This document shows, one piece after another, positions 4,207 to 14,331 of a stretch of 29,680 bases of DNA. Both the position numbers and the translations under genes were made by a program. Source of the DNA: a virus. Taxonomy: Duplodnaviria > Caudoviricetes. A model generated the notes under the pieces. It worked only from the letters and a program-made list of their open reading frames with translations. It made no database searches and had not been told where the DNA came from. The stretch is from positions 1 through 29,680 of the IMG/VR virus record IMGVR_UViG_3300047479_000092, one strand, 5' to 3'. Position 1 is the first letter of the stretch. Each line of letters starts with the position of its first letter.

Positions 4207-4569
4207 TCATTCGGGGGTATCCAGCCCGGGTAAATCGAGCTGATTGAGCGCCGCCGCGCGTTTTCGCATCACCGCGCAGATATACCTGATCTGCCGCTCC
4301 GTCAAACCGAACTCGGTCGCCAGCTGCCAGGTGTTCTGTCCGTTGAATCGCTCCCAGATCCTCAGGTCGCGCTTGTCCAGGGCCAGCTCGGTGTCCTTGG
4401 GCATATAGAACTCGTTGCCGCCGTACTCCTGGCACAGGGTATGGGCAATCTCGCGCATGATGAACCGGGCGCGGTCGGCATCCATGCCGGCATCCTCGGT
4501 CAGCCGCATCGTGCCGATATCGGCCAGGCGCTGCACGATCTCGCTCGTGCGGGGTTTTCCGCGCCTCAC
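4207..4569 (-). CDS. mor: Mor/C family transcription activator
   Basis: YGGNEFYMPK...RDLRIWERFNGQNTWQLATEFGLTERQIRYI is the Mor signature; GTGA overlap with gemA. Confidence 0.88.
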   Translation of the reverse strand: MRRGKPRTSEIVQRLADIGTMRLTEDAGMDADRARFIMREIAHTLCQEYGGNEFYMPKDTELALDKRDLRIWERFNGQNTWQLATEFGLTERQIRYICAVMRKRAAALNQLDLPGLDTPE

Positions 4570-5096
4570 GGCTGCACCTGCAGGGCCTGGTCGGCCGGCT
4601 GCTTGTCGCCGCGCTTGATCCAGCGCTTGAGGCTCTCCACGACCAGGTCCTGCTGCGCGCCGTTGAGCCACTCGATGCGCTCCACGCCGGTCTGGCGCTG
4701 CACCCAGGCGGTGATCGCGGCCATCTTGCGCTCGCGCACCAGGCCGGCGTCTGCGGCCTGCATCCACAGGCTCCACAGCTTGCGTTCCAGGGCCGTGAGC
4801 GGGCGGCGCACCGGCCGGGCCGCGGGCGCTGCAGCGGGCTTCCCAGCCTGGCTGTCTGCGCGCCCCTTGGCGGCCAGCATGTGCTCGATCAGCCGCTGCC
4901 GGCCGGTGATGTCCAGCTGCGCCGACGAGCGCACGCCCTGGCACACCGTGGCCATCACGTCGCGGTACAGGTCTTCGTCCCAGCCCAGCTCGGCCTTGAG
5001 CATGTGGATGCGCGCCAGGTCGCTCTTGCGGGCCTGCGCATTCACGACGGGGCGGCGGCTGGGTGCTGCGGCGGCGGTCTTGGCGGGGGCTGACAC
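4566..5096 (-). CDS. gemA: GemA / Mu gp16 (DUF1018) family protein
   Basis: RKSDLARIHMLKAELGWDEDLYRDVM...RKLWSLW...VVESLKRW; AGGAG RBS. Confidence 0.88.
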   Translation of the reverse strand: MSAPAKTAAAAPSRRPVVNAQARKSDLARIHMLKAELGWDEDLYRDVMATVCQGVRSSAQLDITGRQRLIEHMLAAKGRADSQAGKPAAAPAARPVRRPLTALERKLWSLWMQAADAGLVRERKMAAITAWVQRQTGVERIEWLNGAQQDLVVESLKRWIKRGDKQPADQALQVQP

Positions 5097-5304
5097 GGGT
5101 ACTGCTCCTGAAACGAAAGGAGCCGGGTGTCACACACACCCGGCGGAAGTGGTCATCGCGGTCGTCGGCTGCTCTCTCAGCCTCCCAGATCGGCCAGGTT
5201 CGCCGGCCTGGTGGGTCCCGATGACAGCGGCGGTTCTTTTGAGCCCACCCACCGCTGATGGCTGCCGGGCTACGCGCCCCCAGGGCCCGGCTGCGCGTGG
5301 TTCA

Positions 5305-5568
5305 TCAGGCCTGGTACCAGCCGCGCACGGGGTCGCGGTACTCCAGGGGCTCGGCCAGGCCGCCGGGCTGGGCGATGGCCAGGCGGAAGTTCGCCTTGCG
5401 CCCGGGCGTGTGGTCGGCCAGGCACAGCGTGTCGATCGCATCGCGGCAGCGCGCCATGTCGTTCAGGCCGACCTTGGCCAGCGTCTTCCAGGCGCCGGAG
5501 TTGTTCATCTGGACCAGGATCTCGGGCGTCGCGTTGATGCGCGGGGCGGGGGTGGTCGAGGTGTTCAT
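5305..5568 (-). CDS. Phage hypothetical protein (87 aa)
   Basis: GAGGGGA RBS; MNTSTTPAPRINATPEILVQMNNSGAWKTL... Confidence 0.6.
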   Translation of the reverse strand: MNTSTTPAPRINATPEILVQMNNSGAWKTLAKVGLNDMARCRDAIDTLCLADHTPGRKANFRLAIAQPGGLAEPLEYRDPVRGWYQA

Positions 5569-5579
5569 CTGGATTCCCC

Positions 5580-5882
5580 TCACGCCGACGCCAGATCCAG
5601 CGCGATCTGGCGGTATTCGTCCGTCTGGCCCACGCGCTCGTACACCCGCACATAGCTGCTGGAGCCGACCACCTGCAGGCTGTCGCCGATGGCCTCCATC
5701 GCACGCGTCCAGCGCGGATCCTTGAACGGGTGGCGGCGCAGGCCCAGCACGCGCGCGGTGTTCACCTGGCCCTGCTGGTCGACGCGGAAGGCGTCCTGAA
5801 TCAGCACCTTGATCTCGTCGCGGCCGTCCTCGGTCCAGTCGGTCAGGCACTCGTCGATCAGCGCCTTCGCAGCCTGCAACCG
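5580..5882 (-). pseudogene. DUF3164 family protein, C-terminal half only
   Basis: RLQAAKALIDECLTDW...AFRVDQQGQVNTARVLGLRR...WTRAMEAIGDS...YVRVYER...IALDLA; the N-terminal half is missing. Confidence 0.85.
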
Positions 5883-5986
5883 CCAGCCGCATCGGTACCC
5901 CCGCCGCCGCACCCCTGGATGACAGGCACAGCGGCAGTGCAAAGCAGCACAGACGCCGAAATCATCAGACGGATCAACACACGCAT
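5858..5986 (-). pseudogene. Lipoprotein N-terminus truncated at the deletion junction
   Basis: GGAG RBS; MRVLIRLMISASVLLCTAAVPVIQG-CGGGG lipobox, then runs out of frame into DUF3164 sequence. Confidence 0.6.
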
Positions 5987-6090
5987 ATCAAGGCTCCATG
6001 AAGTTGCGGGGGAAGAGACCGACGTTACGCGCGCACGGATCTGAATGCGCTCCACCGTTTGGGGGATGCGCAGCGAAACCACCTTCTGAC

Positions 6091-8659: not shown

Positions 8660-9277
8660 ATGAGCGCCACCATGAATCACGGCCTTCCCAACCCCTTCAT
8701 CATCGGCCTGACCGGCCTGGCCGGTGCCGGCAAGGACACCGCGGCCGATCGCCTCTGTGCGGCCCACGGCTTCGAGCGCCATGCCTTCGCCGAGCCCATC
8801 CGCGACATGCTCACCGCGCTGCTGGTGAGCTGCGGCATCGACTACGGCCACTTGTTCGACCGCACGAAGAAAGAGCGGCCGCTGCCGCACCTGGACGTGA
8901 GCCCGCGCCGGCTCATGCAGACCCTGGGCACCGAGTGGGGCCGCCAGCAGCTCGACCCGCAGTTCTGGGTGCGCTGCACGGCCATGGCCTTGGGCCTGCA
9001 CGACCTGCCGCGCAGCGCCCCAGTGCACGACCGCATCGTCATCACCGACGTGCGCTTTGCCGAAGAGGCCGCGTGGATCAAGTCCTTCGGCGGCGTGATC
9101 GCCCGCATCGAGCGCGACGGCGCCGGCATCCCCGGTCAGCACGTCAGTGAGCTGCAGGCCCAGCACATCAAGGCCACCTGGCGCATCCAGAACAACAGCA
9201 CAGTCGACGCGCTGCACCAGCGCATCGACGACATGGCCGCCTACCTCCTGCCACAGCACAACAGCACCGCATCATGA
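8660..9277 (+). CDS. Deoxynucleoside monophosphate kinase (T4 gp1-like)
   Basis: P-loop GLAGAGKDT, FAEPIR, PRRLMQTLGTEWGR, VITDVRF. Confidence 0.92.
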   Translation: MSATMNHGLPNPFIIGLTGLAGAGKDTAADRLCAAHGFERHAFAEPIRDMLTALLVSCGIDYGHLFDRTKKERPLPHLDVSPRRLMQTLGTEWGRQQLDPQFWVRCTAMALGLHDLPRSAPVHDRIVITDVRFAEEAAWIKSFGGVIARIERDGAGIPGQHVSELQAQHIKATWRIQNNSTVDALHQRIDDMAAYLLPQHNSTAS

Positions 9278-11034
9278 GCACCGACAGCACCCTGCGCATT
9301 CCGTTCGAACGGCTGCACGACAGCCCCACCCAGCCGCGCACCGTCTACAACCCGACCAAGATGGCCGAGCTGGTCGCCAGCATCAAGACCCTGGGCGTGA
9401 TGCAGGACATCGTGGTGCGCCCCATCATCAACCGGCCTGACATCGGCGAGCCCGGCGACCACTTCGAGATCGTGTTCGGCCACCGGCGTCGGCGCGCGGC
9501 GGAGCTGGCCGGCGAGGCCGACATGCCCTGCCGCGTGCGCTCCATGAGCGACCTCGAAGTGGCCATGGCACAGCTCACGGAGAACATCAGCCGGGAGGAC
9601 ATGAGCTTCCTGGACACGGCCGACGCCTTCGCCCGCCTGGTGCGCGACCACGGCTTGACCGTCGAGCAGCTCATGGCGCAGTTCGGCCTGTCGCGATCGG
9701 CCGTTTACAACCTGCTCAAGTTGCGCAGCCTCACCGAGGCCTCACGCCTGGCGGTGGCCGAGCACAACATCGGCGTCGAGATCGCCACCCTGATTGCGCG
9801 CGTGCCCGCGCAGTTTCAGCCCACGGCCGTGCGCCGCGTGCTGCACACGCCCTACGGCGAGGACAAGCCGCTGCTGCTGAGCTACCGCGAGGCGCGCAAG
9901 GTGCTGGCCGGCGCGTACACGGTCAAGCTCAACCAGGAGGACGACGGCTTCAGCCCCTACGACCAGGCCCTCACGACCTGCGGTGCCTGCATCGGCTGCG
10001 GCAAGTACAGCGACAACGACCCGGCCCTGATGGGCGAGCTCGGTCCGGGCGTCTGCACGGACGTGCCGTGCCACACAGCCAAGGTCAAGGCTGCCCACCA
10101 GCGCCTGGTCGACGAAGCGCGCCAGTTCGGGCGGGTGATCGAAGGCGCGCGGGCCCTGGAGCTGACCGGCGGCATGGCACACCGCGTGCCCGTCGGCTAC
10201 GTCTGGGCCGACACCACCACACACCGCGAGGACAAAGGCAAGTACTGGGTGATCATCAGCTACGAGCAGGCCTGCCAGCGCCTCATGGACGCGAACATCG
10301 GCGCGCCGTCACGCACATTCATCGAGACCAACCCCGATACGCTGCGCGCGGCCTACACCACAGCCGAAGCCGCAGAGATCAACGCCGCCCTACGCGAGCT
10401 GCTCGGCCTGCCACCGGCGGCCGCTCCCGTGGCGAACACGCCATCCGCCGCTGCGCGTGCGCCCGAGGGGGGAAGGGGCGAGGATGACGAGGACCACCCT
10501 GATCAGGATCTTGAGGATGACGCGCAGTTCTCGCAGCCCGTAGCGCGATCGCCCGAAGCAGCCGCTGTGACGTGGCAATGGCCCTCGATCCTGCGCGCGA
10601 TCATGCGCAAGGCCCTGGTGGCGGAACGCAGCACGGATGACCTGCGCCTGGTCGTGGCCACACTGGCAGACCTGGGCGATGAACTGCCCGAGGCGGTCAT
10701 CGACGTGATGGGCTGGCGCGAAACGATCGATGCTGCCTGCCTGAGCTGGGGCGAGGACATCGACTGGCTTGTGGAGCAGTTGCCCGCGATGTCTGCCGAT
10801 CAGCTCGGCGCGCTGGCGGTGCTGATGGCCCTGGCACACGCCCCCGTCATCAGCGGGATGGGCAGCTTCGATCAACGCAAGATCGACCTGGCCACACGCT
10901 ACGGCGTGGACGTACTCGACCCCGAGAGCATGGGGAAACAACAGACTGACGAGGCCGGCCCTGCCGGCCAGGCGCACGGCGACGAGCTGGAGCGTGACCC
11001 CAACACTGCAGACATGTTCGAGGTGTCCCGGTGA
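9274..11034 (+). CDS. ParB/RepB/Spo0J family protein with Cys cluster
   Basis: SPTQPR, ELVASIKTLGVMQDIVVRP, EIVFGHRRRRAA, ENISRED, HTH, CGACIGC...CTDVPC. Confidence 0.9.
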   Translation: MSTDSTLRIPFERLHDSPTQPRTVYNPTKMAELVASIKTLGVMQDIVVRPIINRPDIGEPGDHFEIVFGHRRRRAAELAGEADMPCRVRSMSDLEVAMAQLTENISREDMSFLDTADAFARLVRDHGLTVEQLMAQFGLSRSAVYNLLKLRSLTEASRLAVAEHNIGVEIATLIARVPAQFQPTAVRRVLHTPYGEDKPLLLSYREARKVLAGAYTVKLNQEDDGFSPYDQALTTCGACIGCGKYSDNDPALMGELGPGVCTDVPCHTAKVKAAHQRLVDEARQFGRVIEGARALELTGGMAHRVPVGYVWADTTTHREDKGKYWVIISYEQACQRLMDANIGAPSRTFIETNPDTLRAAYTTAEAAEINAALRELLGLPPAAAPVANTPSAAARAPEGGRGEDDEDHPDQDLEDDAQFSQPVARSPEAAAVTWQWPSILRAIMRKALVAERSTDDLRLVVATLADLGDELPEAVIDVMGWRETIDAACLSWGEDIDWLVEQLPAMSADQLGALAVLMALAHAPVISGMGSFDQRKIDLATRYGVDVLDPESMGKQQTDEAGPAGQAHGDELERDPNTADMFEVSR

Positions 11035-11279
11035 GCAGAACCGCTGCCCCCACGAGGCGCCTGGCCCACAAGCTGCGCATCGAGCCCATCAGCGTGGGCC
11101 GCGACCATGCGGCCGCCATGCTGGGCATCGGACTGAGCACCTTCGCTGCCCACGTCAGCCGCGGCACGCTGCCCAAGCCGCGCCAAATCGGTGGGCGGGC
11201 GGTGTGGCTGGTGGAAGAACTGCGCGCCGCAGCGAATGCGCTGCCGGTCAGTGAACTGCTGCCGCCTGCTGCGGCGTGA
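11031..11279 (+). CDS. AlpA-family regulator / probable excisionase
   Basis: AAAMLGIGLSTF...GTLPKPRQIGGRAVW winged-helix pattern; near the integrase. Confidence 0.85.
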   Translation: MSRTAAPTRRLAHKLRIEPISVGRDHAAAMLGIGLSTFAAHVSRGTLPKPRQIGGRAVWLVEELRAAANALPVSELLPPAAA

Positions 11280-11283
11280 CGCC

Positions 11284-11670
11284 ATGCTCATCAGACGATT
11301 CCAAGCGTGGCGCATCACACCCCTGCGAGCCGGAGAGTTCAAGCGCACGCAGCGCCTTCGTACGGGGCTGGTACCGATGTTGATGCACAGACTGATGAGC
11401 GATGGCTCGATGGGGTTGATCCATCTGTCGATGCCATCCCGCAAAGATCCCCTGTGTGTTGCCGGAGACAACCTGGTGCGGTTCCGCCCTCCCGCCAGGA
11501 CGGCACCGTATCTCGGACCTTTTCACAGCGGGCCACTGCGGTGCGCCAGGATAGCCGATAGCGTCCGTGTGTTCTTCGACAACTCCAGGCCGTACCCCAG
11601 GGGCCGCCCACCCTGCTCAATTGCTGTGCATAGGCTTGAGGCGATGGGGTACGCTGAGTTTCCATTCTGA
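11284..11670 (+). CDS. Hypothetical protein (128 aa)
   Basis: ATG 4 bp after the alpA stop; ends 5 bp before attC; no recognisable motif. Confidence 0.4.
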   Translation: MLIRRFQAWRITPLRAGEFKRTQRLRTGLVPMLMHRLMSDGSMGLIHLSMPSRKDPLCVAGDNLVRFRPPARTAPYLGPFHSGPLRCARIADSVRVFFDNSRPYPRGRPPCSIAVHRLEAMGYAEFPF

Positions 11671-11675
11671 GCAAA

Positions 11676-11775
11676 GCGTAACTGCTGACATGAGCCGCCT
11701 TTGACGGCGGCAGAGAGGTGAATGATGGAACAGCCAAGTACGCCGGCAAAGGTCGGCTCGATGGACGAGTTAGGC
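11676..11775 (-). other. Integron attC site (100 bp)
   Basis: Minus strand GCCTAAC-TCGTC-CAT(C)GAGCCG(A)CCTTTGCCGGCG...CGCCGTCAAAGGCGGCTCATG-TCAGCA-GTTACGC: R'', L'', L', R' and two extrahelical bases. Confidence 0.85.
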
Positions 11776-12147
11776 CCGCTGCCGAAAGCAGACGGGGCAG
11801 CAGAAACCAACAAAGAGCGACACCCGGAAGGCGGATACACATTTGATGAGGTGGACGCATGGTCGGAGCCACTTGTGCGCGCCTACGCTGCCGCAGAAGT
11901 GGCACGAGCCGTTGCCGCAGAGCGCGAGCGGTGTGCAGTATTGGCAGAAACGTCTTATGCCGAACACACAGACGCAGTCCCAATCGCGCGCTTCATTGCG
12001 GTCCGTATTCGTGAGGCCCATGTAACCGCAGATATGGACATCATTGCAGAGCACAGCGGTAAAACAAAAGACCGCGAATGGCACAGCGTCGGATGCTGGC
12101 TGCGACCCGGCGAAGTGCTGGCGCACACGAGCAAGCCTAAGGCCTAA
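11722..12147 (+). CDS. Cassette B gene, phage-type hypothetical protein
   Basis: GAGAGG RBS and ATG inside the attC loop; AAERERCA motif common in phage accessory proteins; TAA stop inside the next core site. Confidence 0.7.
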   Translation: MMEQPSTPAKVGSMDELGPLPKADGAAETNKERHPEGGYTFDEVDAWSEPLVRAYAAAEVARAVAAERERCAVLAETSYAEHTDAVPIARFIAVRIREAHVTADMDIIAEHSGKTKDREWHSVGCWLRPGEVLAHTSKPKA

Positions 12148-12243
12148 CTGCAAAGGTATGCGGACCGCTACGGCGCCGACGACCTGAGCAAAGCAAACAA
12201 CTGCCCGCCGCCGTGGCGGGTCCGCATGACCGATAAGTTAGGC
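12142..12243 (-). other. Integron attC site (102 bp)
   Basis: Minus strand GCCTAAC-TTATC-GGT(C)ATGCGG(A)CCCGCCACGGCG...CGCCGTAGCGGTCCGCATACC-TTTGCA-GTTAGGC. Confidence 0.88.
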
Positions 12244-12265
12244 CTGTGGGCCGGAGAGGATGACG

Positions 12266-12604
12266 ATGCGAGCAACCATTGCAACGCCAGTCGGGTACTG
12301 GCTGGAATTTCGACCGGGGCGCGTGCTGCTGATGAGCCCGGATGAATTTGCCCGCGAGACCAATCGCGACGGCGCGTGCATCTGGGGACTATTTCCCGAG
12401 CCTCAACCAGGATGCAACAGCGGCCCCGCCGCTTACCGTGGCAACTACTGGCACGAGGCAAAACATTACAAGTACAACCAACGGATTGACCCAGACGCAC
12501 GCCCGGTGTTCCGAGGCCAGATGCTGCAGCGGCCCGACTGGATGGACGAGGAAGGCGACCTTCGCGGCGTACCTGGCCCGCTGCCAGAGCATGGGTGGGA
12601 TTGA
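12266..12604 (+). CDS. Cassette A gene, hypothetical protein
   Basis: GGAGAGG RBS (ATG at 12260 or 12266); the ORF fills the cassette and stops just before the core site at 12606. Confidence 0.65.
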   Translation: MRATIATPVGYWLEFRPGRVLLMSPDEFARETNRDGACIWGLFPEPQPGCNSGPAAYRGNYWHEAKHYKYNQRIDPDARPVFRGQMLQRPDWMDEEGDLRGVPGPLPEHGWD

Positions 12605-12605
12605 G

Positions 12606-12645
12606 GCCTAACTGTTATATCGACAGCAAAATTGATGCGTAATGT
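12606..12645 (-). other. attI-like site heading the cassette array
   Basis: Minus strand ATTACGCATCAATTTTGCTGTCGATATAACA-GTTAGGC: GTTRRRY core with no attC hairpin upstream. Confidence 0.6.
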
Positions 12646-12733
12646 CGGGCGCTATCTGACGCTGCAATGTATGAACGGCGCAAGTGCTTGATTTCATTGA
12701 GCCCCACTGCATACGCAGCAGCAATGATGCATA

Positions 12734-14037
12734 TCACCGTGCAGCAGCATCCTCCCACACCCGATCTAGTCGCGTGAGCCACTCCAGCCGCTCGGTGTCA
12801 TAGCCGTGGCGGTTGTAGACCGCCTCAACACCTGGCTGGATGTGCCCCAGTACAGATTCGGCTACATCTCCTGGGCATCCCAACACAGCAAGCTGCGTGC
12901 GCACAGTGCGGCGCAGATCGTGCGGCGCCCAGCCTGACACCGGCCAGCGCGGCCGCTCCAGCTCCGGCCGGCTCAGGCAGCCCGGCATGTGGTGCCATAC
13001 CGCCACGCCGATGACCTTCTGATGCACGTGCAAGGCCTGGCCGCGCTGCGGCGGGAACAGATGGCCAGCGCCGTGCACATCCCGCCTGGACAGCACGATG
13101 TCGGCAGCACGGCCGATCAACGGCACGCGCAGGTCGACGGCCAGCGGATGACGCGACATCTTGAGTTTGGCCTTGGGGATGGTCCACCACCAGGCGGCCT
13201 GGCTGTCCTTCGCGATCTCGCGGCCCTCCATGGCTACGATCTCGGCGCCACGGCAGCCAGTCCAGAGGTAGAGCGTCAGCAAGTCCGAGATCATGCGCGA
13301 CACATGCGGCAGGTGGCGCAGGATGGCCCCCACCTCGTCCACGCTGAGCACACGCTTGACGACGCCCTGGTGCTGGCCGCCCACGATCTTGCCGGCGCTG
13401 GACAGCTTGCCGCGCAGGATCTGCCGCCACCAGTTCTGTACGTCATCCGCCAGGCGGCCTGAGTCGTGGGCCCACTCCCAGATCGCGCCCAGATCGCGCC
13501 GCAGTGCAGACGCCTGCACGGGGATGTGGTGGTAGCGCCAGACCAAGTCGTATGCAATGGAGCGGGTGACATCTGCGGGGTGCAAGTCGCCCACCGTGCC
13601 CAGCATCGTGTCGCCGATGCGGCGCAGTTCGGCCAGACCCTTGGGCTTGCGGCGGCCGCTGCGTGGAGCGAGGCGTAGTCCTGGAACAGCTGGCGCACCG
13701 TCAGGCGCTGCTGTGGCGCCTGGCTGCGGCCGCTGCTGCCGACTGCGGCCGCAACAGCGCGCTGCTGCTGGCGTAGGGCGCGCCGCTCCTGCGCCGGATC
13801 GCGGCCGCCGTCGCGCAGGCCGCGCAGGCGCCCCCACTCGGTCAGCGCCTGGCCGAACGGCATCGAGGGCCACGTGCCCAGCTTGATCTGCCGCATGCGC
13901 TCGTCGACCGGCGACTTGTAGCGGTACACCCAGGCCCGGCCCGCGGTCGAGGCCACCAGGCGCAGCCCCGGTGCGCCATCGACCGTAACATGCGCGCCCG
14001 GCTGGAGCAGCTTGGCTGCCCGTGCATCGAATTGCAT
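12734..14037 (-). pseudogene. int: Phage tyrosine integrase with arm-binding domain, frameshifted near 13661
   Basis: N-terminal PGLRL...WVYRYKSP...QIKLGTWP in one frame; catalytic TGCR, HDLRRT, LGH and VYNRH in another. Confidence 0.88.
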
Positions 14038-14047
14038 TCATCCCCCT

Positions 14048-14331
14048 AACCTACGCCATGGCGTAAGTTGCCAAGGCTCAGGGGGTCAAATCCTACGCCG
14101 GAAGCTCAAATGCAGGCACCACGCATCCGGATGAATATGGACAACGCACAAGGGCGCTCATAGTGAAAGAGGCAGAAAACGGCAGCTCCCTGGCGGAACA
14201 CACGCCGATGATGCAGCAGCACTCTCCCGAGTGAGCGCAGCACCAGCACGGGCAAACCTACGCCAGGAGCTACGCCGAGTCGTCCAGGGGCGCGAACCCT
14301 GTGGCACGCCGCACGATGTGCGACCTACGCC
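14048..14331. other. attP: core 14199-14219 flanked by arm-type repeats
   Basis: Core CACACGCCGATGATGCAGCAG (HTPMMQQ); CTACGCC-type repeats at about 14048-57, 14060-69 (inverted, imperfect), 14089-99, 14255-64, 14268-76 and 14323-31. Confidence 0.8.

Follow-up and report, generated by a model that had tools for sequence, protein, structure and literature searches.

Two attC cassettes carrying bottom-strand genes at an attI-like site in a temperate freshwater phage

The window, that is, the whole stretch of 29,680 bases analysed here, is an entire linear virus record with a completeness estimate of 63%. Portal, head, tail, and tape-measure proteins are encoded in it, and a repressor/cro pair is located at about 1.3–2.1 kb. 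At least half of the window is present in five runs from four freshwater/aquatic studies, two of which runs may be where the record comes from; no RNA run was listed as containing it. The phage is a temperate, freshwater one. From about 6.1 kb, a run of genes on the plus strand continues through a dNMP kinase gene and a ParB-like gene (9274–11034; PF02195 at E 2.5e-18, TIGR00180 above its cut-off) to a likely excisionase gene, xis, of the HTH_17 type (11031–11279; PF12728 at E 1.4e-4, phrog_66 at E 0.0017), and the integrase gene is convergent to this run. An earlier note on this DNA had called the run the PL operon. Its plus orientation was borne out; the name PL is an assumption, as a minus-strand block of Mu-like genes separates the run from cI/cro. 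This block (4210–6044) contains phrog_532 (late transcriptional activator), phrog_286, and phrog_846, in a phage whose head is lambda-like and whose integrase is of the tyrosine type. No sigma-70 promoter was found in 11000–14300. The Rfam search of the 29,680 bases gave no match at the gathering score and a single chance match at E 0.08.

The integrase gene (12734–14037, minus strand) encodes an arm-binding phage integrase and is frameshifted near 13653, with PF13356 and PF00589 in two frames; its relatives are 420–435 residues in length. With the integron integrase model it scored 12.9 bits, the cut-off being 265. The arm-binding and phage-integrase domains, together with this score, agree with the earlier view that the neighbouring integrase is of the phage type and not an IntI. 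Neither an intI gene nor a remnant of one was found in the 29,680 bases, and the best tblastn match (E 0.3) lay inside the phage integrase. The array described below is, as had been supposed, without intI in the record; as the record is 63% complete, an intI may lie elsewhere in the phage genome. In runs X1 and X2 (depth 120 and 23) and X5, the two parts of the integrase are in different frames, as they are in the record. Runs X3, X4, and X6 have one more base near 13653, which by frame arithmetic joins both integrase parts. Populations with a broken and with a whole integrase thus exist side by side. A conserved non-coding word at 14198–14222 lies upstream of related integrases in many loci and is likely to belong to the attachment region of the phage or to a region controlling the integrase. 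The same word is seen upstream of integrases down to approximately 30% identity, in Beta- and Gammaproteobacteria.

Two attC sites are located between xis and the integrase gene, 366 bases apart: attC A (12142–12243; crossover 12148/12147) and attC B (11676–11775; crossover 11682/11681). In both, the top strand is the minus strand of the record and the recombining bottom strand is the plus strand. The G of the crossover on the minus strand is at 12612, 12148, and 11682, the first of these belonging to an attI-like site. Each attC contains R'' (GCCTAAC), a 5-nt spacer, an 8-nt L'', a 7-nt L', and R'; in other words, R''/R' cores with L''/L' boxes at 5–6 nt spacing are present in both. R' of attC B is GTTACGC, one base off GTTRRRY. 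L'' of both sites has an extra C at position 4, which corresponds to an extrahelical G on the bottom strand. The extrahelical bases on the bottom-strand hairpin are present in both sites and fix their polarity; they are given as a polarity feature of attC in the available part of a published account (PMC5027507). In both sites, the fold of the plus strand is much stronger than that of shuffled sequences (z −4.45 for A and −5.13 for B). The folding energies of the bottom and top strands were −24.9 vs −18.1 kcal/mol for attC B and −27.6 vs −30.3 kcal/mol for attC A. The slightly stronger top-strand fold of attC A is the sole discordant point on the strand call. Despite this point, the plus strand is taken as the bottom strand of both sites, on the basis of the bulge position and the covariance model.

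This covariance model, R1, was built from 37 attC beside intI genes of Burkholderiales-type genomes and has strong covariation. The 37 sites were chosen with the rule-based finder, which means that the rules of the finder are common to both; window sequence was absent from the model. On the plus strand, R1 gave 50.8 bits for attC A and 48.2 bits for attC B, the next best score being 11.7 bits for attC A on the other strand. The finder itself called exactly two sites in the 29,680 bases and none in six shuffled windows. Canonical attC having R''/L''/L'/R' and extrahelical bases had been described at this locus, with a covariance model as the proposed check. Boxes, folds, finder calls, and R1 scores bear out the description, and the sites passed the check at 50.8 and 48.2 bits with our own model of 37 bacterial sites. 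At least two attC in a cluster is the threshold for a CALIN, as given in the available part of the source (PMC9024848). The locus, having two clustered attC and no intI in 29,680 bases, is a real CALIN in a phage. Both sites resemble viral attC more than bacterial attC, and the best bacterial matches to them are much weaker than the viral ones and so point to no particular host integron. The exact pattern of attC A had no match in the scan of viral contigs. The arm of attC A at 12175–12243 (plus strand) reads like the N-terminal peptide of genes starting inside such sites, and a stop interrupts it.

The first site of the array (12606–12648, minus strand; crossover 12612/12611) is attI-like; words resembling an L box and a direct repeat lie approximately 30 bases upstream, within 12618–12642. 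The site has no fold (z 0.26). Its 36 upstream bases were compared with 24 attI sites, namely 23 hand-picked from intI loci after the list had been seen and attI1 from L585. By the mean of the three best matches, the site outscored each of the 458 other GTT sites and each of 2000 shuffles, and the best single match was reached by one of the 2000 shuffles. A 13-base matrix made from 12 attI sites, which had been fixed by complementarity to their first cassette, gave −8.7 bits unshifted and 10.0 bits with a one-base shift. The shifted score was reached by none of the 458 other GTT sites and none of the 2000 shuffles, and the spacer of attI1 (L585) is likewise one base longer. The attI-like first core proposed earlier seems to hold as a likeness of sequence, with a spacer longer by one base. 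The 122 bases up to the integrase stop had no match to attI regions beyond chance (24 of 300 shuffles). A 26-base match to the attI-like region of the phage was seen in the bacterial genome G053, with no integron context there. The palindrome at 12612–12626 was considered as a LexA box and dropped, being one base shorter than a LexA box.

Direct reading confirmed the coordinates and lengths given in the earlier note for the two cassettes on the minus strand: cassette A occupies 12148–12611 (464 bp) and cassette B occupies 11682–12147 (466 bp). It had also been claimed that each R'' is complementary to the 5' core of its own cassette. This complementarity is full for cassette B (GTTAGGC), of which the linear R' (GTTACGC) mismatches; the cores of cassette A are identical and do not discriminate. 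ORF A (12260–12604, 114 residues) and ORF B (11722–12147, 141 residues; second ATG at 11725) are both on the plus strand, which is the attC bottom strand; in other words, the genes are opposite to the attC orientation, as had been noted. The loop of attC B contains the ribosome-binding site and the start of ORF B (the test for a Shine–Dalgarno sequence, SD, plus start was positive), and the core of attC A shares bases with the ORF B stop codon. For ORF A, a separate ribosome-binding site follows attC A; this ORF starts beyond attC A, in a frame differing from that of the interrupted peptide.

ORF A had one relative, at 55% identity, and no protein family was matched in the family searches; its predicted structure, at a pLDDT of 42, was not usable. 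ORF B is a mosaic phage-type protein. Its 28 relatives each match either the N-half or the C-half; the majority match the first half only, and four match the last 30 residues only. The nearest Atlas clusters of ORF B are 100% viral at a score below 0.9, which is a lead only. Its alignment led to three viral loci, and the finder calls attC in none of the three. The strict attC-encoded pattern was fitted by 8 of the 28 relatives at the N-terminus and by 6 of the 28 at the C-terminus. With so few relatives fitting, the ORF B family is considered to live outside cassettes too. ORF C (11284–11670, plus strand, 128 residues, basic) lies between xis and the array and ends five bases before the last core. 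It belongs to a genuine family, having 12 relatives of 41–57% identity, mostly 129–133 residues long; family searches gave no match, and there is no attC in front of ORF C. At position 11407 in ORF C, the same loose end of 10–12 bases was seen in runs X4 and X6, from two studies. This word is absent from the rest of the record and possibly represents a variant or an insertion.

Contigs of eight of the ten runs listed were aligned to the record at 85% likeness. The variant contigs are of 151–1,854 bases and depth 2–12, and are from other, related phages. In X1 record 2 (151 bases, depth 2), the 3' end of an xis relative is joined to a relative of attC A at a common TAAC, without ORF C and cassette B. 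X8 record 22 matches cassette A with 7 differences in 383 (98%), and its alignment ends two bases beyond the crossover. X8 record 20 contains attC B with three differences and has foreign DNA on both sides. Loose ends were observed at 12142 in three contigs and at 12243 in one contig of X7, and at 12141 in one contig of X4. Cassette-unit variation at G/TT in related phages was another check that had been proposed, and the neighbours of the attC types and of cassette A do change at the crossover. In run X3, from an independent study, a single contig of 2,672 bases spans the array completely, with four differences; the array is stable in X3 and is not visibly shuffling. Joints skipping 464, 466, or 930 bases were not found among the contigs of the eight runs, a form of data that drops rare variants, so that their absence carries no weight. 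No DNA relative of the array was found in 50,697 phage records or in 201 Burkholderiales-type genomes, and scans of viral contigs with the integrase or ParB protein gave no relative.

In 89 of 105 related integrase loci, a xis homologue faces the integrase. The two genes are within 150 bases of each other in 64 of these 89 loci, and other inserts of more than 500 bases are present in 22. In the closest integrase relatives, xis is 2–235 bases from the integrase end. None of the 105 loci has an attC between integrase and xis; therefore, the array is considered to be an acquisition into this slot. The slot is like the KS9-type moron slot of Burkholderiales temperate phages in having ParB, xis, extra genes, and a convergent arm-binding integrase. 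However, the morons in the 22 large-gap relatives are without attC, and the KS9 morons are on the integrase strand, whereas the genes here are on the xis strand. The named relatives of the integrase, at 60–68% identity, are from Ideonella, Aquabacterium, and Sphaerotilus. The taxonomy of these relatives suggests a host in Burkholderiales, of the Ideonella/Aquabacterium/Sphaerotilus kind. An intI gene is present in three of the five genomes with the closest prophage integrases and in 67 of 121 relatives of the Ideonella genome having a related prophage integrase (66 of 120 without G102). A search for intI in the host had been proposed as well, and the gene proved common in what is probably the host group.

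The layout at this locus was then compared with viral attC at large. Two degenerate attC patterns matched at least 122 and at least 131 IMG/VR stretches, and full flanks were obtained for 80 each. Together with L001 and L002, 255 loci were collected among the matches listed; 204 of them have a site by the rule-based finder, giving 367 sites (318 distinct), and only exact duplicates were removed, so that related contigs are counted more than once. As the bacterial control, 41 regions beside intI were used, of which 21 had sites (61 sites, 30 intervals). By an amino-acid composition score, which is crude, the 126 viral intervals between same-strand sites among the matches listed were 64 inverted, 6 canonical, and 56 ambiguous, whereas the 30 bacterial intervals were 0 inverted, 11 canonical, and 19 ambiguous. 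The best ORF was on the bottom strand in 113 of the 126 viral intervals (matches listed), compared with 8 of the 30 bacterial ones (Fisher p 1e-11). Counted by locus, the ratio was 65:9 in the listed viral matches and 2:8 in bacteria (p 2e-5). An SD and start inside a long attC, with the ORF running out on the bottom strand, was seen in 87 of 178 viral cases among the matches listed and in 1 of 16 bacterial cases; on the viral top strand the number was 0 of 174, again among the matches listed. Genes upstream of the viral arrays listed were on the bottom strand in 55 loci and on the top strand in 5, with 125 unscored. The bottom-strand gene layout is general among the viral attC loci listed. 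R'' fully matches the 5' core of its own cassette in 83 of 105 viral intervals and the R' of the linear neighbour in 37 of 105 (matches listed); the corresponding bacterial values are 23 of 26 and 5 of 26. Such matching of R'' to its own core is expected if circles insert at G/TT.

Three of the 255 viral loci listed, with flanks of up to 2.5 kb, carry a true intI: L023, L079, and L143. In these loci the intI is over the TIGR02249 cut-off and is located 100–160 bases from an attI-like core, with the genes on the intI strand. L023 (1–3400), L079 (1130–3100), and L143 (451–2600) are complete phage integrons with inverted genes. In many of the viral arrays listed, an attI-like word stands at the start, and the flank of up to 2.5 kb contains no intI. 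In L001 (305–3867), at least seven attC are present in a phage early region with non-cassette genes between them, and one site is closely like attC B. Other cassettes of the class contain methyltransferase-like and RNA-ligase-like genes, as judged by reading translations. In Virus Rctr41k (KX853513; L584, 4680–10101), an IntI-like gene of 45% identity is followed downstream by attC-like hairpins of approximately 130 bases. On the polarity of Virus Rctr41k the rule-based finder and the covariance model disagree.

We consider that the two-cassette array, with its genes on the attC bottom strand, was likely built by IntI-type recombination at the attI-like site with the enzyme acting in trans, and give this reading a probability of roughly 0.6. 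IntI acts on the bottom strand in its folded form and joins it to attI; this fixes the polarity and normally brings the genes under Pc, according to the available part of the source (PMC5027507). In the phage, IntI-type recombination would insert cassettes between xis and the integrase gene, with the attI-like site there as the target, and the enzyme would probably be supplied by a host chromosomal integron or a co-resident phage. Cassette B, the presumed older insertion, would have entered first and cassette A, the presumed newer one, second; newly gained cassettes would be added to the plus-strand run (ParB, xis, ORF C, B, A) at its distal end. Relative to the attI-like site, the attC are in their usual orientation; the inversion therefore seems to lie within the cassette, not to arise at insertion. 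The genes would likely be read from an upstream plus-strand phage promoter and not from Pc. The cassettes may come from a phage-adapted pool, in which long attC loops often bear a ribosome-binding site and a start codon. A wider proposal, to which we give a little less than an even chance, is that Burkholderiales temperate phages have attI sites of their own and maintain a pool of mirror-image cassettes, exclusive to phages, whose translation starts lie in the attC hairpin, and that they hijack the SOS-induced IntI of the host to load genes onto the end of the early transcript at prophage induction. In this proposal, the intI of the host would be under SOS control.

The main rival is that the block of ORF C, cassettes, and attI was built in a phage having intI, came here by mosaicism or lost its intI, and is now frozen. 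The viral loci L023, L079, and L143, which carry intI at the matching place, are consistent with such a relic, as are the filling of the slot with morons lacking attC in relatives (22 of 89 gaps above 500 bases; KS9) and the unchanged array in X3. However, the window contains no intI remnant (best tblastn E 0.3), and the different cassette boundary right behind xis in a close xis relative argues that insertion has occurred more than once in this lineage. Among the matches listed, moreover, many viral arrays begin at an attI-like word and have no intI in the flank of up to 2.5 kb. A relic is on balance rather unlikely. It is not exclusive of action in trans, because an IntI from elsewhere may still use the attI of a relic.

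Opportunistic insertion by a host IntI at a secondary, attG-type site, with no dedicated attI and with the second cassette entering either there or at attC B, would be in keeping with the fit of the attI matrix only under a one-base shift. According to the available part of a preprint (bioRxiv 10.1101/2022.09.11.507474), numerous non-att sites receive cassettes through IntI, and such insertion may give rise to small CALINs. This origin is improbable: the site has a full GTTRRRY-type core and a likeness to attI above the 458 other GTT sites and 2000 shuffles, the longer spacer is found in attI1 itself (L585), and a single cassette at an attI-unlike site would be expected instead of two cassettes at an attI-like one. 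Recombination of the sites by the neighbouring phage integrase, the sole recombinase in the record, which ends 122 bases from the first core, is very improbable in view of its arm-binding type, its 12.9 bits (cut-off 265), and the 0 of 105 related loci with attC in the slot. Tyrosine recombinases near attC without the IntI domain were likewise judged not to be IntI in the available part of an earlier study (PMC4889954). That the hairpins are terminators or chance structures is hardly credible; one terminator-like match is inside attC A on the minus strand, but the sites score approximately 50 bits on the bacterial attC model, none were called in six shuffles, and boundaries lie at the crossover in other contigs.

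Recombination at the attI-like site by an IntI in trans can be placed beside known systems. Seventeen phage CALINs have been reported (Qi et al. 2023, PMC9892861), and IntI1 recombined five of the six phage attC tested; the authors suggest that phages gain useful genes in this way (PMC9892861). The present locus is like these in having at least two attC in a phage and no intI. Bottom-strand ORFs, starts inside attC, and active phages with an attI-like site but no intI are not described in the available part of that account, where the orientation of genes relative to attC is not discussed beyond the divergent sites in P12002L (PMC9892861). In TJE1, both attC tested in that study are co-oriented with their genes. 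In the Polaribacter phage P12002L (L010, 30005), attC1 as printed has its top strand on the plus strand and lies between two minus-strand methyltransferase genes. This is the inverted layout in a cultured phage, at the site that failed the IntI1 assay (PMC9892861).

Bacterial integrons (class 1 and Burkholderiales chromosomal) share with this locus the attC anatomy, the G/TT crossover, the polarity of the array relative to the first site, and an attI-like first site. Unlike them, the phage locus has no intI in the record, no Pc that could be found, genes on the bottom strand, attC of approximately 100 nt, and a translation start in the loop. SALINs or attG insertions, as described in the available part of the preprint by Loot et al. 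(bioRxiv 10.1101/2022.09.11.507474), similarly have cassettes away from intI and an integrase in trans, which here is presumed; in contrast, the target here is attI-like and took two cassettes in succession, and the genes carried are inverted and of phage type. The literature searched yielded no account of inverted phage cassettes; it took in few subscription papers and included the available parts of 10.64898/2026.03.17.712381, PMC13366799, PMC13323075, and PMC11551772. The suggestion in the earlier note of an undescribed system thus stands for the inverted, phage-specific layout, which was not found in print; it does not stand for phage CALINs and their recombination by IntI1, which are published (PMC9892861).

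What is new here is the pairing of mirror-image cassettes with an attI-like site in a record that lacks intI. The locus is compact and directly testable, with one candidate attI, two attC, and predicted circles of 464 and 466 bp. Integrons have been treated as bacterial devices, and lately as stores of anti-phage genes. If a phage cassette pool of reversed polarity is indeed served by the same enzyme, phage cassettes are predicted to be silent from Pc on entering a host integron. Through such a pool, phages would also take up small accessory genes into their early regions by a site-specific route; the gain of such genes is a long-standing puzzle of phage mosaicism.
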